From Octopus sinensis (Eukaryota), in the NCBI RefSeq assembly GCF_006345805.1, contig NW_021825323.1:930001-994000 (forward strand): DNA of 64,000 nucleotides, given 5' to 3'. Position numbers and translations under genes: made by a program. The notes below the pieces were generated by a model. It made no database searches. It was given only the letters and a program-made list of their open reading frames with translations, and was not told the origin of the DNA. Shown piece after piece: positions 1-61,280 of the stretch; position 1 is the stretch's first letter; every line of letters begins with the position of its first letter.

Positions 1-468
1 GTATTAATTTATTTTTGAATTAAATAATTAAATGATTAAATTGAAATACAAATTTTTTAAAGAAAACATTCATTTATATACTGGTATTAATTTAAAGACA
101 TTTTGAGAAGGCATGTGACATTTCAGACTAGCGACCCTTAACGAAAAAGCAATGCATCATTTTGCCTGAAAATTTTTTGTAGCGTCTTTGAGTTTCTGCA
201 TTAAATATTCCGAGAAAGCCCCTGGACCTTTTGAATATTTTTTTAATCGAAACGTGTTCAAAAGAGTGGAGCATTTTTCACTCATCGGCTGGAGATTAAG
301 AAAGTCAAAATTATAGCTATTTAATTGATTGATTTCTATAAATACTGAGATTTATTGATATAATGAAGAAATATCCGAGTCCCTCTAATATAAAAACCTT
401 TTAGGATTAAAATAAGTAAAAGTTGATAAATTTATTAAACGAAAAAAGATTTTTGGTAAATAACCAGA

Positions 469-1710
469 CTAAACACGAAAATGATTTCGTTGTTGTTTAT
501 TGCGACCACTTTGAGTACGTAAAGTAGAAGCAGTTGATGAAACATCAGACATGGATCTCCGAGATCGTACACTTGCAGTGGAAGACATTGACAGTCGTGC
601 TAATTTCATATTAGTAATATATGTCAAACCGTATTTATTTTGATCTTTAATTATTATGTCGAGAGTTTTTTGCATCGAATCTACATCTTCTGGTGTAAAT
701 TTATTTCCGTCTCCAGAATCAGGTGTTATCAACGTCATCCCAAAATTTTCCTGAGCTACTTTAAGTCCTGGAAATGATCAATCTCACATCTCATAACCTC
801 CGGAAAGCACAATCAAGTTTGTGTAGCCACGTTCGACCAAAGTAGTGGCTGCTTGATGAATGTTTTTTTCATCCCAATCGTAAACAATAATCAATTTGTT
901 TTCTTTGGTTTTCTTTAAATTTTTATCCTCATTTCATACATAAGCTAGCATTTCTTTGGTCTCGTAGTTGTGCATTCGAGAGAGCATTGTCATTGGATAT
1001 GAAAGTGCTATATTTATGTGATTCACAAAACCAGTTTTTATGTGGCCTTTCATGTACAGGTCTTTATCCCTTAAATCCAATAGCAGATATGGAGACAGGG
1101 AATCTTCCGGAGTTAGACATTGATCAGTTTTTTTAACAGGTTCCTTTAAATAGGGCTCCATATTTTCATCCAGTTCTCCAGATCCGGATATAAGCCTATT
1201 ATATTAGCATAGAGAATACGTCAATAATGTCGGACGGGAATGTGATTTTGAGTTATTCCCATTGATATTAGTAGATGATGAAACCTCTTCTAAAACAAGT
1301 TCAAAAAACTTGCTAAAAGAACCATTTTTTGTTACATTTTTGGACAAAGCTAAGTCGACGTGTTCAATTTGTAAAATCTATGTGAATCTGCATCAAATTA
1401 TATTTTTATAAACCATTTGAATGAATGTTGTCAGTTTTATTCGTTTGAATATTTCGTTAGACCGAATTCGGAAATCTATATAAAAAGTATTCCAAGTACT
1501 TGTTCTGACATATTCCATATCTTGTGAATATTTGGCGCTGCTGCAGCCTATTAAATATTGTCACTCTTGGTAATAAATACCAGTATCAACCACGCTTGAT
1601 ACATGGTCATATTTTGGATTTTTTTTGATTTTTATTTCCAGGATCTTAATTTGGTAATCAACATATACTACACTCAGCGGTTTTGTGTTTCTTTTAGCAT
1701 TATATGACAT
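469..1710 (-). CDS. CEP41: Centrosomal/ciliary protein CEP41 (rhodanese-like domain), about 317 aa, 10 microintrons
   Basis: Spliced reading gives KNPKYDHVSSVVDTG, NEIFKRIKLTTFIQM, PYLLLDLRDKDLYMKGHIKT, IIVYDWDEK, RGYTNLIVLSGGLKV, matching CEP41 motifs. GT-AG introns at 1645-1671, 1548-1580, 1476-1499, 1378-1413, 1290-1322, 1196-1219, 1008-1031, 913-939, 768-797, 600-629. Confidence 0.9.
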
Positions 1711-1774
1711 TTAAATCAGTGCAATCCACAACCTATTAAATAAGTATTGTAATTGGTCCCATGGAAACGTTATT

Positions 1775-2307
1775 TTTATTTGCACTATCATAGAAACATA
1801 ATGTAACGAAAAACTAATTCCACATATGCCACACATGAGACTGTTGTCTTAAATATATTTTTCAAAGATGCGCGGTTGCGTGTTATACTCCTGAGAGTAT
1901 CAAGGTCGTCTTCATGAGAAAACAGTAGATAGGGTTATTTATGGATGTTCTTGGAACGCCGATTTGTTGTCTTTGTAATATGATTTTATTGCCTCAAAGA
2001 AAGCTGGAACACTCCTAGGAGATAGCGAAGACATTATAAGGAGAAAGATGCTGTTGACTGTTTTAATTAACGATTTGCGGACCATATGGCTACGAAACCG
2101 CAAGGTTGGAACATCCTTGCGTCCCAAGTTATACAATGATTTTGTTAAACCTATATTTTGGACATCTGAGTCTGAACTAAAATTCCTCAATACGTCCCAC
2201 AAAAGACAGTTGAGACTTCTTACTGGCATCAACTAATCGAAGAACATTAAGAACTCCACTCTATACCATATCTGAAACAGCAGACCAGTCGCTATGGTAC
2301 ATTATCG
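1775..2307. mobile_element. RTE-like LINE fragment with 5' inversion (3' segment on -, inverted upstream segment on +)
   Basis: + strand 2011-2307 reads LGDSEDIIRRK...LYNDFVKPI...HKRQLRLL...RPVAM. - strand from about 2010 reads VPAF.EAIKSYY...EDDLDTLRSITRNR, then an RTE-type 3' UTR and A-rich tail. Direct repeat aacgttatt at 1766-1774 and 2308-2316. Confidence 0.75.
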
Positions 2308-2610
2308 AACGTTATTAATACTTAATTTATAAAAACAATTTTTAGTTACTTTTGTTATATGTTTAGGAACTGAACTAAGAATAAAATATAACGAGTCCGA
2401 TATATTTTTTACGACAAACAGATAATTTAATATGGTTCGTTAAACGGTGTCACGTCAATAAATGATCTAAAATTTGTAGAAATAAAAAACTGCAGAAATA
2501 TGACATTCTAGTCAGTAAATTACAGTTAAATTGTAAAGCTTAAATGAAGATCGACGAAGGGATGGGATTACTAATTTATTTAACAAATAATACATTAAAT
2601 TATCATGAAT

Positions 2611-3589
2611 TATTATTATATAGCACTGTCGGAAAATCATAAATTTAATTAAGTTTTCCTTGTGCCACAGCCAGTATCCTCACACACATCCGTTTCCATG
2701 CCCCCTGTTTTTTGCTATAGTCCGTAATGAATCAAGATCGTCCCAACTTTTCAGTCTTTTGTTTACTCCTGTCAAGTCTTCGTTTAACGCGGTAGGTAGA
2801 GTGACTCTAGGTCTTCCACGGAAAGCTCCTTTGGATTGGGCAAAATAGTTTTCCATGGCGATGTTCGGCGGAGCGAGGTTGTCCAGTCTCAATATGTGCC
2901 CAAAAAGTCTCCATCTGGATTCCAGGATGTCCATGGAGATCAGTCTCGAGTTAGATCTGTTGTATAAGGCCGAGTTAGATATTTTTCTTGGGAATTGTAT
3001 GTTCATAATTCTTCTCAGTTGATTTTGATGAAATTGGTTCAAACTGTTATATCAGCTTTGGTGATTCATGTAGATCCATTATACATCAAGACAGGAACAA
3101 TAAACGTATTATATATCTTTAGTTTTGTCTTTGTACTCAGTTTCCTTAATCTCCAAATGTTCAAAATTTTGTTATACGCAGCGATCGATAATATCTTTCT
3201 ATGGGTGATATCTTCAGAGTCACCCAGGAGTGATCCGACTTTTTTTTGCTTTCTCCAGGGCTCATCATGGGTGGGTTCAACGTGAACAATTTTCGTGTAT
3301 TCCGTTTTATTATGATTGACTGTTAGAAACCATTTGGAAAATATATGTGGTAATGTTTCAATAATATACTGAAGGGTTTCAGCGTCTTCAGAAACGAAGT
3401 CGACATCTTCGGCATATATTATTTCATTGTATTTGCTATCAATTCTGAGAATCTCAGTACACCGTTTATATTTTTGACATAAAGCAGCGGTCCATCTGTG
3501 CGTCCAGATAACATCAGCAGTGAACCTTCCAGTTCTGAATCCCCGTGTACTAGCCCGTTTTCACACCTGGTATCTACTAGCCCGTTTTC
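2611..3589 (-). mobile_element. 5'-truncated, internally deleted RTE-like LINE
   Basis: Motifs GFRTGRFTADVIWTHRW, IYAEDVDFVS, VGSLLGDSED, ESRWRLFGHILRL, RGRPRVTLP; (TAA)n-like tail; 10-bp TSD tatcatgaat at 2601-2610 and 3590-3599. Confidence 0.9.
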
Positions 3590-3710
3590 TATCATGAATG
3601 GTGTTTCTATTATTAAATAAAAGCAATTTATTCTTGAATAAAGAGCATTTTTAATTATTTTTAATATATTCTCAATCAAATTAATTTAAAAAAATCATAA
3701 ATATATTATT

Positions 3711-5718
3711 ATGAATAATGTTGTCATTTATCACTTACAAAATAGCAAAAGAATGAAATCGGAAAATCTTATGAGATTTCAAACAAAGATGAACTTCTTG
3801 CAATATTTTCTCACACAGATGCAATTATGGAGACCACCGTTTTCAGAAACATCCCCAACTTTATAAAAGCAGGAGGGACACCCACAGAAACCGTAGATCT
3901 GCTAAAAAACAGTTATGTTGGGTATCCTAGATTAAATAATTTACTAATGGAATGGCTACTTGAATTGGGTTATTTTTCCATAAGTTTATTCACAGGAGAC
4001 GACAAGGCTTCAGTCGAATCTACAATTCGTGAGACCTTTGCTGGAATTCTCAAAGAAAAAGTACAATTTAAAGATTTTGATCATCTGACACCTTCTATTG
4101 ACAACCCTCCGACATGGCTTAAAAATTTCATGTTTTACCCGGAATGGCGGGAACTTGTTTATTGTCAGTTTAAGGAAAATCCTTCTAGTAAAGTTCTTGG
4201 TTGTGCAATAAAAGTATTTTTATTATTTTTTTATTTTTCTAAGTATGTCTCGACCACGAATTTTCGGTATGAACTTGATTCGGTAGCACATCTCGTAACT
4301 GAAGATATTGAAATATTTTTTTCTATTTTATCTGACCTACTACGACGGTTTATTGACGCTTCGAATCTTGGAGAAGCTTTCAAAGCTCGGAAGTCTCTTG
4401 TGGTACACTGTTGCTGTTATTCTTACTAGAAACTAGCCAGTTCTAGTTTTCATTCACTTTTGACAGTTCAGTTAGTACTTAGCTCGTTGGCTCATACAAA
4501 TGGGCGGATTCGTGACTGCATAACAGACCTGTCTCACTATGTTTACAAAAATGTGTCAAAACAGTATTTTGTGAATTTATTTCTTAGATTAAATGTATTT
4601 TGTGTTCAAAATATTATTGAACGAGTAAATTTAACTGATTCGGATTTGATGGAAATGACGGTCCAAATGAACGCTGTTATTGACCGAGGGAGTTTTGCGG
4701 ATCTTGATATCAGCAAAGTGGGCATTTCTATTTGTGTACTAAGAAATAGTTTTGCGATATATGCAAAAATAAATCATGAATTTTATTGTATATTTTGATA
4801 GATTGGAATAACAGAGGGTTCAGTGGATGGTCATTGGTCTTGTTCTGTCAAACCTTTTATGGGTTTGGTTAATTTTGTGTTAATGTAGAAATTCTGGTTG
4901 AAGCTATATTCGTTGAGAGATTTTCTTTTCCAGAAAATTCATTTCAATCTTTAATTCAATTTGCTTACAATTTAGACGAGTCAAATGTTATAGATAGTAT
5001 TTAAATTGACCAGGGGACTATGTCAGTCTCAAGTTTCCATGAACTTGTGACGGAGACTGTTGATGTCATGTACAAATCTGAAAAATCTGGTGAACTAAAG
5101 ACAGCATTGTGTTTTTTGAAAGAAAAAAGTCTTGAAACTCCTTTTACGGCATTGGGAATCCTCAGGTGGATTTTTTCCGTCACACGAAAACCAAGTTACT
5201 TTATGATTGAGTCGGAAAAGCCTTTGCATTTATTTTTTATCGACGAAATTGTGGATGCCCACCCATCGCTGCATTATCAAGTCTATTCGGTGCTAATCGA
5301 ACTATTCGAAATTCACTATGATGCCATTGACGTCGGGAACTCTCAGGTATAAACTCAAATGCACATTATTTATTTTTGATAGATCAAACACAGAAAAATA
5401 ATAATCGACAGATTAGTCCATTTGTTGTTTAATGGATTTATTTTTAAAATTTTGTATTATTTTACTGGGAGGATTGCTTCAAAGGACGTTGATTTTTCAC
5501 TCGTTCGTTATTTTGTTAATTCGGTTTTTTGTTGAGTATTAATTGGTAGGTTTTGAAAAATATTAGTCCTCCATATAGTCCAGAGTTCCACCAAGTGTTA
5601 TGTGATATTATCAAATTGTTGGAGCCTTCGGAAAGATCTAATTTTTGTTATAAAACATTTAAGGGTTTGTTCAAATTGAACCATTTTTGTAGACTGGACA
5701 TCTGATACTGCTAATTAA
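3711..5718 (+). CDS. NELFCD: Negative elongation factor C/D (TH1-like), about 548 aa, 11 introns
   Basis: FSHTDAIMETTVF...AGGTPTETVDLLKNSY...NLLMEWL, PTWLKNFMFYPEWRELVY, LFFIDEIVDAHPSLH, IIDRLVHL, ISPPYSPEF. Intron lengths 26,27,30,27,24,84,26,27,36,26,28 give a continuous frame. Confidence 0.88.
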
Positions 5719-12899: not shown

Positions 12900-15668
12900 A
12901 TTGATATTAATCCGACCGTTGTCCGCTGGAGGTTAATCTCCTCTTTTTAGATGATGAAGTAACCAACACCACTCCTTGATCCTCTGTCTCCAAGTTAGTT
13001 ACGACTCTTTTTCCCTCATTCTCCATATTATCTTCGTACGAATGACTTGCTTCAATTAAGAGGCTGCTGGCTCAATTTATCTCCTCGTCAGTGATTCTTA
13101 ACGATTTTAACTGTGTTCTGTGTAAAGAATCAAGACGGTCCATATCGTGTTTAGAGATTCCCCATGTGCCAGAGTTATATTCTCAGCCTGGTATTTAATC
13201 CTATTTTTTGTGATTCCATATAGCCGATATTTTTTCAATGCAGCCATAGCAAGAATCTTCCTGTGTGTAACATCTTCTGAGTCTCCTAGATACGAGCCCA
13301 GTTTCTTTTGCTTTCTCCAAGAGTCGTCGGATTCACGATCAGTACGTGTGAGCATTGTAAATTCCGTTTTATCAGATTTACGGATAAAAACCATTTCGAG
13401 AATACGTGTGGAATTTTGTTAAGAATGTGGTGTAGTGTTTGAATATCCTCGGAAACAAAGTCCAGATCGTCTGCATAAATCATCTCCTCAGAATTGTTTC
13501 CAACGAGAGCTCTGAACTCTCTTAGTGCTGCTTCAAGGTATACAACGAAGAGGACCGGAGAAAGCGAATCCCCCTGTGGGACTCCACGAGAAGTCCGAAA
13601 AAACTTTGAACAGCGTTTGCTAAGTTTGACAGAGAGATGAGTGTTCTGCATGAGCAGGTGTATTATTTTAACGTCGTCAGGGTGAAGAAAACTCTTCAGA
13701 ACTTCAATAAGTTTTCCCCTGTGTATAGAATCAAACGCCCGAGAGATATCAATTCCAAGTATTGCGATAGATTTTTTGTATTTTTGGCATAGAGCGCAGT
13801 ACCATCTGTGCCCCCAAACAATATCAGCAGTAGACCTGCCTGTACGAAAACCACTTTGGCCAGGGGATAGGAATTTGTTAACTTTGTTTTTTATCCGGTG
13901 TAATGCGATGAGGGATAATGTTTTGCGTATGGAAGTTGGTAGAATTATCGGTCTAAAGTTGCAAACGGGGCCTTTAGCTTTCCTGGGTTTATGTAATGGG
14001 ATTAGCCATTCTTTTCCAAGATCCAACGGATTGTCTTCCTGAAGAAACCGATTGAAAACATCAGTAATAATTTTAGCTAGCTCCACTGGTGCGTGTTTTA
14101 TAAGTTCTGCCGGGATATTGTCTGGCCCTGCGGATCTTCCGGTGTTCAACTTTTTAATGGCTTGCAGAGTTTCAGGGAGACTTATTGGGTTTGTTAATGT
14201 GGATTTATCAGGTTTTAAAGGTTTCAGGGTCTGATCAGTTTCAGTATACATATTGAATAAGGAATCAAAGTGCGAAGCTAGAATACTAGCTTTTTCGGCG
14301 TCCTCGGCAACAGTACGATCGAGATTATCGTGGAAAATGATAGGGGGCGTGCACTTCCCTCTGTTGAGGAGGCGAATAGCTTTAAACATCATTGGCCCAT
14401 GTTTGTATTTCATTATTTCGGAAACTTGTTTTTCTGCTTCACTTTTGGCAAGAAATTTTTGTAGTTGTTTCATCTTTGTTAATAATCTTCCTCTCTGCGT
14501 ACGGAGTTCTTTGATTTTCTCAGGTGAGCTTGTATTTTCCGATTGTAGTCTAAGTTCTTTTTGTATTAGAGAATTAGAAAACCGCGGTATTCCGTATTGC
14601 GGTAACTGTTTCCTCCCAGATCTTGTTAGCTGGTTGATTTTGGTCGATACAGTCGATGCTGTTTTTCAGGTCGTACAATATCGAAGCTTGGTGGACTCTT
14701 CGTATCCAAGCCTCTCCATATCGTATCGTACTGGGGCAGTGCCTTTGAGCTTTCCACGTATTCCATGGATTCTGTACAGCATTAACTGAGCCACAACAAG
14801 TTTATAATCGTTGCTGGTTTCAAGTTCACCGTATGACCTCGAGTTTTTCAGAAGGGCCTTTTGATGCTGCCTGCAAAGAATATAGTCTATCTGGTTATAA
14901 ATCGGAATGGTATTTCCAAGTTTATCTTTTCTAAACCCAGTCCAGGTGGTTTTATGCCTTGCCGGGTGCTTGAAGCAAGTATTGCATAAGAGTAAGTTGT
15001 ACGCCGTGCAAAATTGTATCATGGATTCTCCGGGGAGGTTGCGGCGGTTTCTTCCATGAGCTCCAATGCATGTTTCCCCAGGTTTGGCAGTTCCAGCCCT
15101 AGCGTTCCAGTCTCCGGCAACAAACAGTAGGTAAGAAGCGGAAAGCGAGCTGTATACACTCGTGAGGGTCGAATAGAAGTTGTCCAGCTCTTTGTATTTG
15201 TTGAGACTCGCACCCCAGTAGGAGCATATAAATTTATAATCTAAATGAGGATCTTTCGACAGTTGGTCTGCGACTGAAGTCGGCGGATGACCTGGACAAA
15301 CTCAAAGATATCGCGCGCAGCAGAAAATCCTGGTCGAGACTTAGGGAGAGAATGTACAGAACACGGCACAAGGGAGACTTAATTAACTTTATGTTTTCTC
15401 GAAAGTGCTCTTAATAATAATCAGTGATTCTGATCCCATGCCTCTGTTTAACAATCATACTCTCCAGTATTTTCTTCAACACAACTGACTGTATATAAGA
15501 ATGAGTTACGTCTTCGATAGCCAACTTTTCAATGTAGTTCTTAAAAAACTTGGAAACGAGCCCGTCCCAAATCAAAACCAGTGGAATTATTTTTACTTGA
15601 GCGTCGTAAAGAATGGACAACTCCCCTGCCAATAGATCGTATTTATGGCATTTCTCGACCTCGACCTG
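12900..15668 (-). mobile_element. 3' fragment of an R4/Dong/NeSL-like RLE retrotransposon, interrupted by the RTE insertion at 13099-15420
   Basis: QVEVEKCHKYDLLAGELSILYDAQVKIIPLVLIWDGLV...YIQSVVLKKILESM...RITD at 15421-15668 continues in frame as EEIN... below 13088 once the insertion and one TSD copy are removed. Confidence 0.7.
13099..15420. mobile_element. RTE-like LINE (APE + RT) with 5' inversion: about 2.1 kb on - (13099-15240) plus 180-nt 3' end on + (15241-15420)
   Basis: - strand: NLYAPT, NQIDYILC (APE); SGFRTGRSTAD, DISRAFDSI, RGVPQGDSLSP, YADDLDF (RT); frameshifted. + strand: LNEDL...ADDLDKLKDIARSRKSW, UTR, (TAA)3. 11-bp TSD tcagtgattct at 13088-13098 and 15421-15431. Confidence 0.88.
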
Positions 15669-52420: not shown

Positions 52421-53220
52421 GTGTAAATAATTACAAAATAAATTGTTACATTGTGGAAAAAGTTGTTTTTATATAAAACCATATAGAAAAAGTAGCATAT
52501 GGTTCTTTATCATAATGTTTTTATTATAAAGTACCAAATTGGAATTGATTAGAAAATGAAAAGCATTCTAATCATAGCACATCTTGAGAGTATTTGATCT
52601 AGTCTCATTAACAATAATACATTATTTTCAACTCAAAAGTGACCGACGGCATATGGGCTAACTATCAATGAAATTCTTGAAATATATCTCTGGATTGCTC
52701 GTAACTTGTTTGTCAAAGGAACTGACGCTAAACTATCAAATCTAATCTAAATCACATTTCAAGATGATCACATCACATTACCCCTGATCACATTACCGAT
52801 GAAGAATCTCCATTATGCAAAACCCGTCCGGATCCAAATGAAGTGCGGTGAGCTACGGTAGGAGGCTGACAAATGGGAACTGGACATATCAGAATTCCCC
52901 ACCTCTCTTTGGAGACGAATGGCTGTAATGAAGATTTGGAGGCTAATGTTGATCGGCACAAGCAATCCCTTCGTTCCTTGCTCCTTCATTTGATTAGTTA
53001 GTTGTGACTGTTTGTGCTGGGCTTGCCATGTTGTGCAAGCTTGGGGGTTATAAATAAATAGATACATTTCAAAGTGAAAGTTTAAAAAAGTGAAAATTTC
53101 AACTTTCCTAACCACATAAGGTTCCAAAAATTTAGAACATTAATCCCTTTTCACGTGAGCCAACTTGGAGTTTTTTTTATTTCTATGATTGTGGGTTCTT
53201 TTTTACTTTTTAGCATTGAT

Positions 53221-55402
53221 TATTATTATTATTAAAGCAATCTCGCGGAATCAAAAAGTTAATTAAGATTACACTTTTGCCATCCGACTCAGGATACGCT
53301 CTGTTAGTCGTATCCACGCTCCCCTGTTACGTGCGAGGTATCTCAGTTCGTCCAGATCATCGGCCGATTTCAGTTTTCTTCCAATCGACGTGAGATCATG
53401 GTCGAGCGTAGTCGGTAATGTTGTTCTTTGTCGGCCCCTATATGCCGTTTTATTTAATGAGCAGAAGTACAGTGCCTGACAAAAAAATTGGATTTGTAAT
53501 AAATCGACTTTTTTTAAAAATAAATTATAATTTAATTTTCTTACATCATTCTTGGCAAAATTATAATTATTTTTTTAATTTTTAAAATTATTTTTGGTTT
53601 TTAGAATTTAATTTTAAAGCAGAATTTAAAATTTGCCGGACAAAAAAATTGGATTTTCGTATAAATGAAGCGTAATTCAAAAATCCATTTATCTGATTTT
53701 ACAAAAGGAGTAATAATTAGATAGTACTCTTCAGGAAAAACAATTGAAGAGATATCTAAAATACTGAAAATTCCCAGATTGACCGTAAGATTTGTGACAA
53801 GAAAATTTTCCAAAGAAGGCACCACTACGCGAAAAATTAAATCTGGGCGTTTACCGAAACTCTCTTCAGATCAAAAAAACACAATACAATTAATCTCGAG
53901 GGATGAACCCTCAATTTCTGCTGTGTCTCTTTCTGAGATAGCAAAAACTCAATTTAATGTGGACGTATCTCCCAGAACAATTGGTCGTATACTAGATTCA
54001 TTTGGATTACATGCCCGAGTTGCAAAACACAAACCTCTTTTAACATCAAAAAACATCAAATCCAGATGGTTAATTGCGAAAAAGTTTTTAGCCATATCTG
54101 ACGAAGAATGGAAGAAAGTCATCTTTTCCGATGAGTCATGTTTTGAGGTCTATAACAGCAAAATAAGGATCTATAACAGCAAAAAAAACGGTACTGCCTA
54201 TGAATAGTCCAATATCGTACCTACTGTTAAGTATGGTGGAGGAAAGTTATTGGTTTGGGGATGTTTCTCATATGAAGGCGTCGGTAATCTTGTTATTATA
54301 AATGGAAAAATGAACAGTGCTTATTATTTAAACATTTTGTCGAATAATCTGAAGCAATCAGCTCTAAAAATGGGGTTAAACTCATTTATTTTTCAACAAG
54401 ATAATGCTCCATGCCACAGTTCCCGAGTAGTTAAATATAAAATTCTTGATTGGCCGTCTCAATCACCTGACCTTAATCCATTGAGCATGTTTGGGCAATG
54501 ATGAAGAGAAAATTATTGCAAAAACCGCCGAAAAACTTGAAGGATTTGGAGACAAAATTAGTTGTGATATGGGAGTCAATACCGAAAAAATACCTAGAAA
54601 ATTTAGTTATGTCAATGAAAAAAAGAAGTTCGGAAGTTTATGAAGCACGTGGAGGGATTTTAACTTATAAAATTTTAATTTGTTTCATTAAAATAAAAAA
54701 TCCAATTTTTTTTGTCCGGCAAATTTTAAATTCTGCTTTAAAATTAAATTCTAAAAGACAAAAATAATTTTAAAAAATAAAAAAATAATTCTAATTTTGC
54801 CAAGAATGATGTAAGAAAATTAAATTATAATTTATTTAAAAAAAAGTCGATTTATTACAAATCCAATTTTTTTTGTCAGGCACTGTAGGATTCTATGTTC
54901 TGATTAGCCGGCGTCATTTCCGAGGCTCTTAGGACATGTCCAAAGAACATCCACTTCGTGGACATCACTTTCTTTGCAATCTCGGATGTATGGGTAATTC
55001 TGTAGAGTTCATTATTGGTCATCTTTTTGGCCAGTGATTTCCCAGGAGTAGTCGTAGTTGTTTTCTGTGGAAAGAGTTGAGCTGCTCCAGTTCTTTAGCG
55101 GTTAGGCCCCAGGTCCCCGCGTTGTAAAGCAAGATTGGTTTGACAAAGGAGTTGTACAGCCGAATTCGAAGGCGGGTTCCTATGTACTTGCGCCTCATCC
55201 AGATCGTCCACATTTTTTTGAAGTATGCAACAGCCAAAACTTTCCTTCGAATAACGTCCTCCGAGTCCCCAAGGAGAGATCCAACTTTCTTGCATGTTCT
55301 CCACTTCTCCTCGTTTCTCGTCCCCAGGCGGGATATGGTAGTTCTTTCCGTTTTGTCCGGGTTTATTACAAGGGACCAGTCTTTCAACGAATGAGGGATC
55401 AC
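53221..55402 (-). mobile_element. 5'-truncated RTE-like LINE hosting an IR/DR Tc1
   Basis: KKVGSLLGDSED, LYNAGTWG, WMFFGHVLR, ESY|FCS..YRGRQRTTLP (frame restored on removing the Tc1); (TAA)n tail; 12-bp TSD tttagcattgat at 53209-53220 and 55403-55414. Confidence 0.92.
53470..54885 (+). mobile_element. Tc1-like transposon with about 190-bp IR/DR-type TIRs, defective transposase
   Basis: TIRs 53470-53657 and about 54697-54885; TA on both sides; 18-bp direct repeat gacaaaaaaattggattt at both ends of each TIR; VIFSDES, VWGCF, FQQDNAPCH, SPDLNP; stops and a frameshift. Confidence 0.95.
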
Positions 55403-56462
55403 TTTAGCATTGATAGACAAACAAATCGGATAGAAAATCTTTTTGTTCTAATCATAATAGATCTATGTCATTTTAAACAAGTTTTTTTTAAAAACGTGAT
55501 AATTTTAATGAACATTTCCTTGCACTTTTTAGCCTAGAAAACGTCAACCATTTATAGTAAATTAAAAGATTTTTTCTTTCGAAAGATAACAATACCTGAG
55601 AAACTGCCACTTTTATTACGCCATAAAAATATTTTTTGTGGATTAAATTAAATGACTTAAATTTCTGCGTCCCTCGCTTTTTACAAAAACAATCAGAATC
55701 AGTATGGTAAGAAACTTAGGTCTTTTTACAAGAAAGCGCACTGTTAGCTTTTAGTAAAAACTATAGACGTAAAAATGTTGATTTTGAAAATATTTTAATT
55801 TAGACCTATAATTAACATGACTCGACTAAAGTGGCTGGTCACCCAGGGATCAAACAAATCTTCAGGCGTTGATTGGGTAGAATGAGATTCAGAAAGAATT
55901 ACAAAAAATAAGATAATATTTTTATTTTTCAAAAGAGTCTTTATGTTATATTTGAATCTTTCTATGAATAACGAAAATATTATTATCGATTTTTGAGAGT
56001 AAACCAATAAAAAACTTAGATTCCTTCAAATCTGCCGACTAACCATTAAAATTAGACAGAAATAAGAGCATTGTCACATAATTGATTGACTTTTAAGAAA
56101 TATAATACTTTGCACAGCATGGCTTTTTTATTGATACAAAAAACTGCCATTCAGCGAAGACGATGAGTGCTATGAGATTTCACATGTACAGACACGTTTT
56201 CAAAGTCAAGTATCTCCAGAGGACGCAGTAAACAAGGTCGAGGGTTTGGAAACCAAGAAAATGACAAACTATCGCGGACCACCATCTTTTTGCCTCCGTC
56301 GTATTCAAAACTTCAAGATCGCTGAAACACGCATGACAAACTTTATCCATGATATCGAAATAAGAATTGCTTTTCAAAGATATGAACATCGGGGATCTAT
56401 CGGAGAATTTTGGCGGAACATTTCCGCGCACGGTTAATTCTTTCTTATTTTTTTATATAAAC

Positions 56463-57900
56463 AATTATTATTATTATTATTTAAGCTAAACAAAATCACC
56501 GTCTTAACCATTAACTAACGTTCAGGTGATTCCGACACTTCTCAACAGTCGAGCATTCTTTTCACGATGTTCCCACCGTGACCCCACACACTTTCTGTAT
56601 GTAAGGTGAATGGTTTGTGGTCCATTTCCACGATCCCCCCCATTTGCCTCTACGAGAGACTCCAGTGTTCTATGGACAATTTCCCTATCGGTATGGTATT
56701 GATAAAAACTGGAGAAAAAAAGGAAACTGGGATCTCTACTTGGTGATAGTGGGGAAATGATGTATAAAAGAGTCCTAGCTAGTGCAATGTATAAAAATGC
56801 AAAAATATGGAGTCGACCAAATGTAGATTGTGGGAGAAAAGGAAGGCTTTTGCAAAATTTATCTTCTTTATACAGGTTGATACGATCGATTCTACGTGAG
56901 GTGAAAAACAGAGGAAAGTATCAAAGGTTACTCCCAATATCTTCTGTGTTTTCTTTTGTGGTATTGGAATTCCGTTCAACGTGACATCAATAGTTTTCGT
57001 CCCCACCTTCCTATTTTTCGTGAATAGAGTGACTGCTGACTTTTCGGAACATGCATGTAGTCTGTTTTCATATAGCCATCCATATAAGTCGTCCAGTATT
57101 CTTTGTAGTCTTTCCTTCGCGTATTCGACATTTACATCCCTAGATGCGACAACTATGTCGTCGGCATAGGAGAGTAGTATGTCATTATTATCCATAGGAA
57201 CCGGGAGATCATTCAGAAACAAGTTGAAGAGGGTCGGGGATAAAGGAGAACCCTGAGGTACACCATTGGGCAATAAGCGTGATCTTGAACTCTCGTGCCC
57301 GACGCACACTTTCCCACGACGTCCGCTCAAAAAATTCGCTATCCATAGCTTCATAGGTGTAGAAATATTTGTACCAAATATCTTTTGAATTAGGATCTTC
57401 CTTGGGACGGAGTCAAACGCTTTTTCAATGTCGATAGTGCATACAATCGATTTCTCCTGCAATTTCTTCTTTTTGTGTCCTTCATTTATGAAATCTGTTA
57501 GTGTGGTAAGGAAGGAGGTCGTTGACAATCCTTCCTTGAATCCATGTTGGAATGTAGATTGTGGGAGAAAAGGGCGAATATGTTTTAGGACCAGTTTTTC
57601 CAAGATTCTTGACAACACACATTTAAGGGATACTGGTCTATAGGAGCCGGGGTCGTTCTTCGGTCTTCCAGGTTTTAATATTGGCCAGATTTTTGATAGT
57701 TTCCATAAGTTCGGTATAGAGTTCGTGATTAATGACGTGTTATAGATCGTGGTTAAAGCATTTATTGAAACAGGGCCCAAGTGTTTTAGTAGAATAAGTG
57801 GAATTCCATCCGGTCCACATGAGTTTGTTTTCTTCTGATTCGAGATTGTTTCAGACACCTCTTCAGGAAGAAAATAAGTCGTCGGGGCCTTTTGGATGGC
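56463..57900 (-). mobile_element. Jockey/I-like LINE RT fragment with internal deletion
   Basis: CGPDGIP, SYRPVSL, QHGFKEGLST, IDIEKAFDSV, GVPQGSPLSPTLFNLF, SYADDI, KILGVTFD; (TAA)n run at about 56464-56480. Confidence 0.88.
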
Positions 57901-58582
57901 TTTGATTTTAATCTTGGCTGTGATTTGATTTTAATCATGTATAACTTTTATAATAAAATGATAGCTTTTATAACTTTTATAATAAAATTGTGTATTCTTT
58001 TTAACTCATTTTCTATTAATTATTTTCATAACTTCAAATAAATATTAATGAAACTGCATTTTAATTGAAAAATGTCAAAATTTATGTGGAAAAAAATGAT
58101 GAGTCTATGAAAGAAATATGGATTTTTTCTGCAATAAGATATAAATGATTATTTTGTGGTAGTTTCCTACTTCTTAGAAATGATTGATTAGCCGTAATTT
58201 CAATAAAATTGACTAGTAGATTCTGATTAGTATAAATGCACTTTCATTTTTTACTCGTTATTAAAATTATCATGTCGACGAGGAAAGAGCATTCTTTGAC
58301 CTCAAAAACGAGTTGTAACGGTCTAATAAAAAGGTAAAAGTTATGGAGAGATTTCTAAATTGCTGACATTACCAAAAAGTACTGTTTGGAATATTATTAT
58401 CCATTAGAAACAACAAAGAACTGTTATTCATCGACCAAAATCAGGTGCTCCGAGACGTTCTTGCTCACTAATTAAAATAATAGTTTTGGAATATTTTAAC
58501 AATAATAGTTGGTTTAAGGAAGCCAAAAAACATTCATTAATTGGAAACAATTTGCTATGAAGAATGGGGAAATATTAGTCAG

Positions 58583-60890
58583 ATGCCGTCTGGTCCCGAA
58601 GATGGATATGTGCCGAACAAATAAGAACATATTGATAAAAACTGGAGAAAAAAAGGAAACTGGGATCTCTACTTGGTGATAGTGGGGAAATGATGTATAG
58701 AAGAGTCCTAGCTAGTGCAATGTATAAAAAATGCAACAAATATGGAGTCGACCAAAGCTAATCAAAGCATAGCTACGAATAAGATTATACAACTCGTATA
58801 TAAAGCCAGTACTTGTGTAAAACTCGGGTACATGAGGAGTAACAAAGTTAGAACTCAGGAAAATAGGCACATTTTATCGAAAGCGATTACTTGGCCTAAA
58901 TTGACAAAAAAGATTTCCAACAAGAAATTATACTCTATATCAGGCCTGGCCAACCCAAATCGCATCGCGGGCCACTTTGTCCAAATGAATCCTTTCCGCG
59001 GGCCGCATATACATGTACATACTAAGGATAGATATCAAAACAACACAGATAAGATTTTATTTAGTAAAATAGCATTCAGTCCAATTATACGTATCAATGA
59101 GAAATCTGTTTTTCTTTATCTTCACTTAATTTTTTCAAATCAACTTCACAATTACTAGTTGCACATCTTAATTGGTTTTCTAAGTTTTTATCTGTTAAAG
59201 AAGATCTATATCTACTTTTACTAAACTTTAATTTTGAAAAGAATGATTCACATACGTAAGTAGATCCAAAGGAGCTTACAACTCTTTGTGCAAAAATTCT
59301 TAAGTTGGGACATTTTTCTGCAGTCACATATTTGTTATAAAAGTCAATTTTGGATATAGTAGGATAAACAAGTCTTAGTTCACTGTTGCACTGTAGGTCA
59401 ATTATTTCCGTCTGCAAAGTATTTGAAACAATAGAAACGTCAACATGAAATGGAGAAGAAAATGTTTCAAACATTTTCTCATATTTTTTTAGTTCCGAGA
59501 ATCGACTGTCAAATGCTGCAGCAAGATTTTTTATTTCATCAGCGTACTTGAAGAAATTTTTACAATGGCTGATTTTAAATTGATTTAGCGTTGGAAAATG
59601 TTGATCATTTCCATTTCTTATTTGACATTCAAACAATGACAATTTCATTCGAAATGCTTTGACTTGATGGCATGCATTAGTAATCAAATTATCCTGTCCT
59701 TGTAACTCCTTGTTTAATTGATTAATTTTTTCGGTTATATCTACCAAAAAGCACAGATCTAGCATCCATTCTTCATCATTTAATTCAGTTAATGTCATTT
59801 TCTTATGCATCATAAAACTTTTGATTTCTTCTCTCAAGTCGAAAAAACGTTTTAAACATTTTCCGCGACTCAGCCATCTGACATTGGAAAAATACACAAG
59901 ATCACCATAGTGAGAATATAACTCGTTCAATAATTCTTTAAACTGGCGATGTTGAAGTGCATGAGAACGAATGAAGTTTATAGTTCTTACAACCACACTC
60001 ATAACATGGTTCATAGACAACACTTGCGCGCACAAATTGTGTTGATGTATCAAGCAGTGTATTACAAATAAATCATTTTTTATCTAAAAAAACTGCGACC
60101 ACTTCGACAAAAGTACCGAATTTAATAGTCTTTGCTGATTTCTCAATTCAGATTTAAGCGAATCCAGTTTCCTTGTTTTCAATTCCTTACTAAATTTCGC
60201 GTATTCGGAATGCTTTGTTTCATAATGTCTTCTTACATTGTACTCTTTCACCACCGATACTTTCTCCTTGCAAATTAAACATGTTGGCTTGGAATTATGC
60301 ATTATAAAAAAGTAATCTTCTTCCCAATGATTGCTGAATTGCCTGTTTTCTTCAAAAATTTTCCTTTTCTTCATATTGATAACAGCTACAAAAATAGATA
60401 AACTTTAAAATTTATTAAACTTATAAAATTTATCTTTATTTATTAAACTTAAGAAAAATTTATCTTGAATGTATTTATAGGTTAACTACATACAAAATTT
60501 CTCTCGCGGGCCGCACCAAACTCCATCGCGGGCCGCATGCGGCCCGCGGGCCTTGGGTTGGCCAGCCCTGCTCTATATGATACAATCGGTTCCAATAAGA
60601 ACTGAAATTATCGAATCAAGATGGAGGCTATTTTTAAATATACTTAGAAAGGACATTAACACTTCCGCAAACATTACAATGGACAATTACTTTGACAATG
60701 AAAACAGAAAATTGTTCGAAGAAAGACCTAAATTTACTCTCCCTGTTGTTCTAAACAAGAATCTTAATAAAATTGGAAAAAACCCAAATGTGCGGACGAC
60801 CTAGAAGAACTATGAAAAGACGCAAAAAACAGATAAAGAAATTTGGTGAATAGAATCTCGAAACGTGTGCCACGAACAGAATCTTGATTA
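58583..60890 (+). mobile_element. Degenerate RTE-like LINE hosting a hAT element
   Basis: DAVWSRRWICA, KLGSLLGDSG, WPK..KKISNKKLYS, then after the hAT IIESRWRLF..PKFTLPVVLNKNL. Confidence 0.8.
58941..60570 (-). mobile_element. hAT transposon, Buster/Charlie/SPIN (GTF2IRD2-like) group, internally deleted
   Basis: TIR cagg(c/g)ctggccaaccca; 8-bp TSD ctctatat (58933-58940, 60571-60578) with central TA; PTCLIC..RRHYETKH, HCLIHQHNLC, VRWLSRG, FGSTYVCESFFS; gcgggcc subterminal repeats. Confidence 0.95.
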
Positions 60891-60897
60891 ATTTACA

Positions 60898-61280
60898 TTC
60901 TATTATTCCCGTTCAGGAAAGGACTGGCACTCGTGTGGGATGTTACCTGCGTATACTCATTTTCCTCATCATCGCTAATCGACCCTGCTTCCCGTCCTAG
61001 ATCTGCATCTGCCCTTGCCGAATCTACAAAAACTGCAAAATATGGCTCTTTGACCGATACCTGCTGCTTCATTCCTCTGGCTTTCGAGACCAGCGGGATA
61101 ATTGGACTCAAAGCGCTCAAACTACTCTCAGAGATTGGTTTAATCATCTCGGGGAGGAATGAAACGAGCTGGCTTTTTCAGCGGACATCGTTCGCAATAT
61201 TACGTGGAAATTGCCTGTCCATCCGCTCGGCGACTTATCTAATTTAGTTAACTTCTCGTTTTCTTGTTCTACAGAAAAAA
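60898..61280 (+). mobile_element. 3' fragment of CRE-like non-LTR retrotransposon
   Basis: LVWDVTC...AESTKTAKY...FIPLAFETSGIIG...WLFQRTSFAILRGN; A tail; 8-bp TSD aatttaca at 60890-60897 and 61281-61288. Confidence 0.85.

Follow-up and report, generated by a model that had tools for sequence, protein, structure and literature searches.

Second-strand cutting and joining is a long-open step in the insertion of LINEs, and 5′ inversion is its clearest footprint. Elements of the L1 clade have ORF1 and ORF2, a C-terminal CCHC motif and a poly(A) tail; those of the RTE clade, beside which the related clades RTEX, RTETP and Proto2 are named, have a short 3′ UTR, a microsatellite end, a TSD peak of 10–12 bp, and neither an RNase H nor a C-terminal zinc knuckle. 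For the 5′ inversions of mammalian L1, the twin-priming model (Ostertag and Kazazian, 2001) is described in the available text of PMC2912911, PMC12016303 and PMC4245944. Inverted copies were counted in 639 of 2068 L1 insertions of human and chimpanzee (PMC2912911, Table 2) and in 1 of 5554 Alu insertions (PMC2912911), and a frequency of 18–22% is also given for L1, with arms meeting within 20 nt in 46% of inversions (PMC12016303). In the portion of PMC4245944 available, L1 inversions are linked to TSDs of 10–20 bp and 5′ inversion is treated as nearly L1-exclusive in human cells, inversions being seen there only with L1 except for one Nimb-2 insert. The same portion describes a zebrafish LINE outside L1, Nimb-2_DR, that gave a 5′-inverted de novo insert in DT40 cells and whose TSDs are ~12 bp long; this is a single event in culture, in contrast to the standing 25% in the natural family reported below. 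For L2 and RTE, the accessible text of PMC4476161 gives U6 chimeras by template switching only, and a term search of the accessible text of PMC13295347 found inversion nowhere mentioned for Bov-B. A literature search, which covered few subscription journals, turned up no account of 5′ inversion as a frequent event in RTE or invertebrate LINEs.

Positions 1766–2316 of a 64,000-nt stretch of DNA (the window) support a reading as one decayed RTE-type LINE insertion, 5′-inverted, between 9-bp TSDs (Table 1). A sequence-only reading of the window had reported identical 9-mers at both ends, and these are indeed present; if each of the two boundaries is fixed to within ±6 nt, a common 9-mer is expected by chance with a probability of 0.0016 for random pairs and 0.0064 with the real 3′ boundary. 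The same reading had proposed a single 5′-inverted RTE-like insertion, which is borne out: flanked by the TSD on both sides, the two arms lie in opposite orientation and tile adjacent, non-overlapping stretches of the consensus of one family (family A), in the order TSD-[2696→2360]-[2756→3′ end]-tail-TSD. On the plus strand, 1993–2309 corresponds to consensus 2360–2696 with 82% identity over aligned columns, and the 3′ arm is 78% identical to family A. A genome search (G000) placed both halves at ~77% identity to one repeat family in opposite orientation, with most relatives colinear. The copy is dead, with stops and deletions in both arms (in-frame stops and a deletion of ~20 nt in the inverted arm, an internal deletion of ~35 nt in the 3′ arm). 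It is ~20% diverged from every relative compared; the best relatives are 80–85% identical, and no closer subfamily was found among them.

Table 1. Features of the inverted insertion and its surroundings (positions refer to the window unless a locus name is given).
Feature	Position	Strand	Remarks
CEP41 first intron	1671–1645	-	27 nt
CEP41 first coding exon	1672–1710	-	ATG 1710; spliced contigs X2, X5
TSD at element's 3′ end	1766–1774		AATAACGTT on minus strand; first five bases overlap TAA-type tail
Decayed (TAA)n-type tail	1775–1781	-	One substitution versus older relatives (alignment with L312–L320)
Non-inverted 3′ arm	1775–1992	-	Consensus 2756–3016: ORF C-terminus, stop region, short 3′ UTR
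Inverted arm	1993–2307	+	Consensus 2360–2694; dead
Microhomology of 2 nt, inverted arm/TSD	2308–2309	+	Likely internal priming site
TSD at element's 5′ end	2308–2316		Second copy of the 9-mer
RTE-type copy, family B	2601–3599	-	10-bp TSD at 2601 and 3590; internal deletion; inverted 5′ tip 3560–3592
Third inverted RTE-type copy	13088–15431	+	11-bp TSD; inverted arm 13099–15240; forward arm 15241–15420
5′-tip class	L093, L099, L103, L115, L185, L208; window 3560–3592		

The strands of the arms had been assigned correctly before (3′ arm on the minus strand, preceding part on the plus strand), but the junction had been placed at 2010/2011. It lies 18 nt further left, at 1992/1993, with 1993–2010 forming part of the inverted arm: the plus-strand family alignment starts at 1993, and the loose ends of family contigs from runs X2, X4 and X5 fall at 1993–1996. 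The stretch missing between the arms, formerly thought to be 36 nt, is consensus 2697–2755 (~59 nt), part of which may be a later deletion. Microhomology at the inner junction is 0–2 nt and varies with the reference, the copy being ~20% diverged. Whether family A or either of two older relatives (L117, L313) serves as the reference, the outer junction keeps its 2-nt microhomology, which, taken alone, is not above chance. With a TSD of 9 bp and no T run at −10, the RTE target signature is weak in this copy, and the TSD is shorter than those of young inverted copies of family A (10–15 bp) and falls below the 10–20 bp given for L1 inversions in the available text of PMC4245944.

Two insertions of the same family lying head-to-head, or an assembly chimera, with the 9-mer arising by chance, could imitate this arrangement, the more so as the region is AT-rich and five of the TSD bases overlap the tail; in the runs examined, neither an empty site nor an independent read across the junction was seen. 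We nevertheless consider this very improbable, since the 9-mer has a chance of only 0.002–0.006 and the two arms, equally diverged, cover neighbouring intervals of the consensus. The arm on the plus strand also lacks a separate tail and TSD, and the same pattern with TSDs recurs in young copies. The flank is single-copy in G000, in which no empty allele was seen. An orthologous contig from run X4 tracks window 408–1775 at ~95% identity and then continues with 17 unlike letters, covering the left flank only; its departure just past the first TSD copy is compatible with, but not proof of, an empty site.

The consensus of family A was built from 9 full-length copies and is 3020 nt long, with one 975-aa ORF from position 48. 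This single ORF, which follows a short 5′ UTR without an ORF1, encodes an endonuclease and RT (homologues carry PF03372 and PF00078; the database label of the endonuclease is CFDP2/Bucentaur-like), and the element ends in a 3′ UTR of ~45 nt and a (TAA)n tail. No C-terminal CCHC was found in the ORF by inspection, and no RNase H among the Pfam entries of the homologues. TSDs of 34 copies measured 8–16 bp, mostly 11–14 bp, and in these copies the T fraction at −10 from the TSD was 0.65 vs. ~0.4 elsewhere. The ORF plan, the 3′ end, the TSD size and the upstream T stretch are those of the RTE clade, and family A is accordingly classed as putatively RTE-type; the single ORF, the absence of CCHC and the TAA tail depart from the L1-clade plan. 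Likewise, RTE-clade LINEs of the BovB and RTE-1 type are described, in the text available, with a short 5′ UTR, a single endonuclease-RT ORF, a microsatellite tail, a TSD peak near 12 bp and T-rich sequence ~10 nt upstream of the TSD (PMC13174262, PMC4245944, PMC6007223), the last of these giving an RTE insertion signature. The nearest relatives of the family A protein outside this genome, which include sequences from sea slug, sponge and oomycetes, are at most 52% identical.

The copy at 1766–2316 is ordinary in itself, and its value lies in the statistics of its family. An exact 28-mer from the 3′ end of family A, searched over 2.7 Gb, gave 52 matches (control pattern, 0), which left 48 independent copies after removal of four duplicate pairs: 9 full-length, 23 truncated, 12 inverted and 4 internally deleted. 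In the closest family, inversion therefore occurred in 12/48 (25%; Wilson interval 15–39%) of the independent young copies, as the suggestion that inversion is a regular outcome for the family had anticipated, and this rate was not different from the 639/2068 of human and chimpanzee L1 (p = 0.43). Inversions had reportedly been held by Ichiyanagi and Okada in 2008 to be confined to mammalian L1. All 12 inverted copies had distinct breakpoints and distinct flanks, and in all 12 the 3′-most end of the inverted arm pointed toward the 5′ flank. A TSD abutted the inverted arm in 11 of the 12, none being found for L103; the TSDs of the 10 young inverted copies listed were 10–15 bp, with ~12 bp typical. 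On the consensus the arms met within 20 nt in seven, overlapped by 37 nt in one and were separated by gaps of 1.6–2.7 kb in four, and in seven of the 12 the inverted arm reached the 5′ end of the element. Two further inverted copies (L115, L118) were not captured by the exact-match census and are not included in its count. The same inverted junction was present on two contigs (L045, L046), and another was shared by three loci (L191–193). Nine loci from older relatives (~five insertions, 1.5-kb flanks) showed no inversion. Four full-length copies (L037, L039, L041, L095) carried a short, variable, T-rich leader ahead of the common 5′ end; inverted copies reaching the 5′ end have such a leader at their inner junction too.

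Like inverted mammalian L1 copies, these insertions have the order TSD, inverted arm, forward arm, tail, TSD, with arms often ≤20 nt apart, microhomology at the outer junction and a similar frequency (25% vs. 18–31%). Unlike L1, family A is a 3-kb invertebrate element that has a single ORF, lacks ORF1 and ends in a TAA tail; its TSDs are ~12 bp (9 bp at 1766–2316), its inverted arms reach the 5′ end in 7/12 copies, and it includes a class in which only the first ~100 nt are inverted. The geometry of twin priming, i.e., the 3′-most end of the inverted arm at a TSD, then a forward arm with tail, between TSDs, was found at 1766–2316 and in 11/12 census inversions, and we conclude that the copy at 1766–2316 very probably arose by twin priming at insertion, as the census inversions likely did, the individual steps being reconstructed from end products. 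At 1766–2316, the endonuclease would have nicked one strand, the freed end pairing with the TAA tail and starting the first cDNA (the 3′ arm). Before copying finished, the other strand would have been nicked 9 bp away, and its 3′ end would have annealed within the same RNA via two matching bases and primed the second cDNA (the inverted arm). The two cDNAs would then have been joined end to end with loss of ~59 nt, fill-in would have yielded the TSD, and point mutations and deletions would later have eroded the copy.

It might be argued that an ordinary 5′-truncated insertion came first and that its upstream part was flipped locally afterwards, particularly since the copy at 1766–2316 is old and older copies in this genome show many rearrangements. 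However, such a flip would need a breakpoint exactly at the TSD edge, both here and in the 11 inverted copies that are >98% identical to the consensus. A search for an inverted repeat bounding the inverted arm at 1766–2316 found none, and a plain flip gives neither gap nor overlap, yet offsets of −37 to +2700 nt occur. A later flip thus appears highly unlikely.

Microhomology at the outer junction averaged 2.0 nt in 11 family A inversions vs. 0.72 nt in simulation (p = 0.0006), and 2.3 nt in 14 inversions of families A, C and D (p = 5e-6); for this scoring, L044 was corrected by hand for an indel, L099 (one extra base) was set to 0, and L103 and L185, which have no TSD, were omitted. At the inner junctions of young inverted copies, microhomology was 0–4 nt, several junctions having extra bases. 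Colinear truncated copies also showed junction microhomology of 1–4 nt, and because of this the microhomology supports annealing but not twin priming alone. A separately made or folded-back piece of cDNA could have been captured in reverse at the 5′ junction by microhomology-mediated repair, as the similar microhomologies of truncated colinear copies would allow; the 1.6–2.7-kb gaps in 4/12 inversions, together with the four internally deleted copies, could likewise reflect loosely joined RNA pieces. Such a capture does not explain why the 3′-most end of the arm is always at the TSD or why 7/12 arms reach the 5′ end of the RNA, as cDNA grown from the target would; the presence of Ku genes in the compact genome and the differing rates of families within one host also speak against it. 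We therefore regard capture as improbable, and twin priming as the better account of these copies.

What is new here are exact-match censuses with a non-RTE control, family-specific rates and a class of 5′-tip inversions. In family C (RTE-type; census of 32, 31 independent) inversion was found in 1/31 copies, and in family D (RTE-type) in 3/26 independent copies drawn from a best-scoring sample (the best 33 of 77 candidates) rather than a census. Family E, a non-RTE endonuclease-RT LINE, gave 1/49 (census of 57, 49 independent; upstream flank only 1.5 kb at several loci, and an edge reached at four). The rate of family A exceeded that of C (Fisher p = 0.012), that of E (p ~0.002, computed with 48 rather than 49) and that of C, D and E pooled (p = 0.0005), but not that of D (p = 0.23). 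In family B, for which ~13 independent loci were collected without a census, two inversions were clear and one was possible. A scan for overlooked short inversions in the 60 nt upstream of non-inverted copies (39 of A, 31 of C, 28 of D, 56 of E) yielded only one weak junction candidate (L222, 14 nt), which was not counted. Families A and C are both young, share ~50–55% protein identity and reside in the same genome, in which their inversion rates are about eightfold apart (25% and 3%). Since the other families on these contigs have lower rates, the rate is mostly set by the family; the host allows inversion in all families that were examined. The earlier alternative that inversion is regular for the host is thus only weakly upheld: each of the four families has at least one inversion, but the rates outside family A are 1/31, 3/26 and 1/49. 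Loss of Ku as a host cause was rejected, as two compact Ku genes are present on small contigs. In a family-E element at L239 (4164–4861, reverse strand), the last 345 bp are tandemly duplicated, with the copies 90% alike.

In seven copies from families A, B and D, the inverted arm corresponds to the initial ~100 nt of the RNA, and the forward arm stops far downstream of these. Of the four wide-gap inversions in the family A census, three began within the initial 100 nt (p = 0.0003, post hoc), which suggests the idea that the 5′ end of the RNA may be held near the second nick. Capture of the 5′ end would also fit the tendency of RTE elements toward bipartite derivatives with 5′ and 3′ ends. In bipartite non-autonomous RTEs, as described in the available text of PMC5786205, both ends are kept and the middle is lost, much as in the internally deleted copies of family A, three of four of which (L084, L085, L090) start within the first 32 nt. 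Unlike bipartite RTEs, the 5′-tip class has its 5′ piece in reverse orientation, and its copies arose as separate events rather than as members of an amplified family. Six internally deleted copies (L084, L085, L090, L092, L210, L188) have a 5′ piece and the 3′ end in the same orientation within one TSD, although in L210 the 5′ piece is only 13 nt and the TSD is unclear; they resemble bipartite RTEs but are separate events.

Since a 3-kb single-ORF element has the same inversion rate, ORF1p is likely not needed for inversion at an L1-like rate. A more far-reaching possibility, which we offer tentatively and hold to be rather doubtful, is that twin priming is encoded by the element, with a one-ORF RTE inverting at an L1-like rate without ORF1p or mammalian host factors, sister families differing about eightfold, and the RTE protein perhaps holding the RNA 5′ end at the second nick. 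If so, comparing families A and C would be a natural way to ask what times second-strand cleavage. With 25% and 3% inversion in one genome, the determinant can be tested by swapping the endonuclease, the RT or the RNA ends.

Five TSD-bounded RTE-type copies are found in the window, at 1766, 2601, 13088, 21359 and 53209. Two had been counted as inverted; the number is three, as the copy starting at 2601 also has an inverted 5′ piece, of which 30–33 nt match the 5′ region of its family on the opposite strand. The other inverted copy reported earlier, at 13088, is real. In the copy starting at 2601, the inverted tip is followed by a second copy of the first 15 nt and then by the forward arm, and re-priming is a possible origin of the repeated 15 nt. 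DNA transposons interrupt two of the RTE copies: that at 53209–55414 contains one with 190-bp inverted repeats (53468–54887), and that at 58600–60900 one with a hAT-type ORF (59094–60083; Pfam PF05699). In a family-E LINE at 56467–57932 (a 2.9-kb element whose single ORF bears a putative 2A-like motif near its start), ~160 nt are replaced by a 127-bp piece (56697–56821) that matches the RTE copy at 58630 (58630–58756) with 98% identity.

The gene beside the insertion had been named CEP41, and the match of its exon at 787–933 to PDB 11yj CEP41 (E 1.3e-7) bears this out; a second exon matches at E 0.086. The start codon had been put ~65 bp from the insertion. An ATG at 1700 runs into a stop ahead of the first intron, which leaves 1710, 55 nt from the TSD, as the open start. 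Whether the insert lies in the CEP41 promoter or 5′ UTR had been raised as a question. Spliced contigs end at 1726 (X2) and 1721 (X5), and although such contigs cannot fix the start site, they hint weakly at a position of the insert upstream of the transcript and not in the 5′ UTR. A divergently oriented gene at 3710–4800, which we take to resemble NELF-C/D, shares the intergenic stretch with CEP41, and the insert likely lies in this stretch, between CEP41 and the divergent gene near 3710, alongside the second RTE copy.

The window is gene-dense, and spliced contigs from runs X2, X3 and X5 show introns of 24–36 nt. In animals, introns so short are described, in the available text of PMC13644364, PMC6543705 and PMC6736024, only for dicyemids (parasites of the cephalopod kidney) and myxobolids. 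All census loci fetched lie on contigs of ≤1.3 Mb, and RPL10 of the window shares no more than 69% identity with any listed match, with no close named one; the proteins of family A carry an octopus label in databases. Ku genes are of two kinds, compact ones on small contigs (L321 = G000:C11397 and L322 = G000:C12460) and single exons at chromosome scale (L323, L324), which points to two genomes in one assembly. The contigs thus probably come from a dicyemid-like parasite with tiny introns that was assembled together with its host. A parasite genome apparently filed under the name of its host matters for annotation. The seven single introns placed by spliced contigs (within 500–1710 and 3892–4103) measure 33, 36, 33, 27, 24, 24 and 27 nt, all divisible by three, which would occur by chance in ~1 of 2000 cases; the summed intron gaps of 57 and 135 are also multiples of three.
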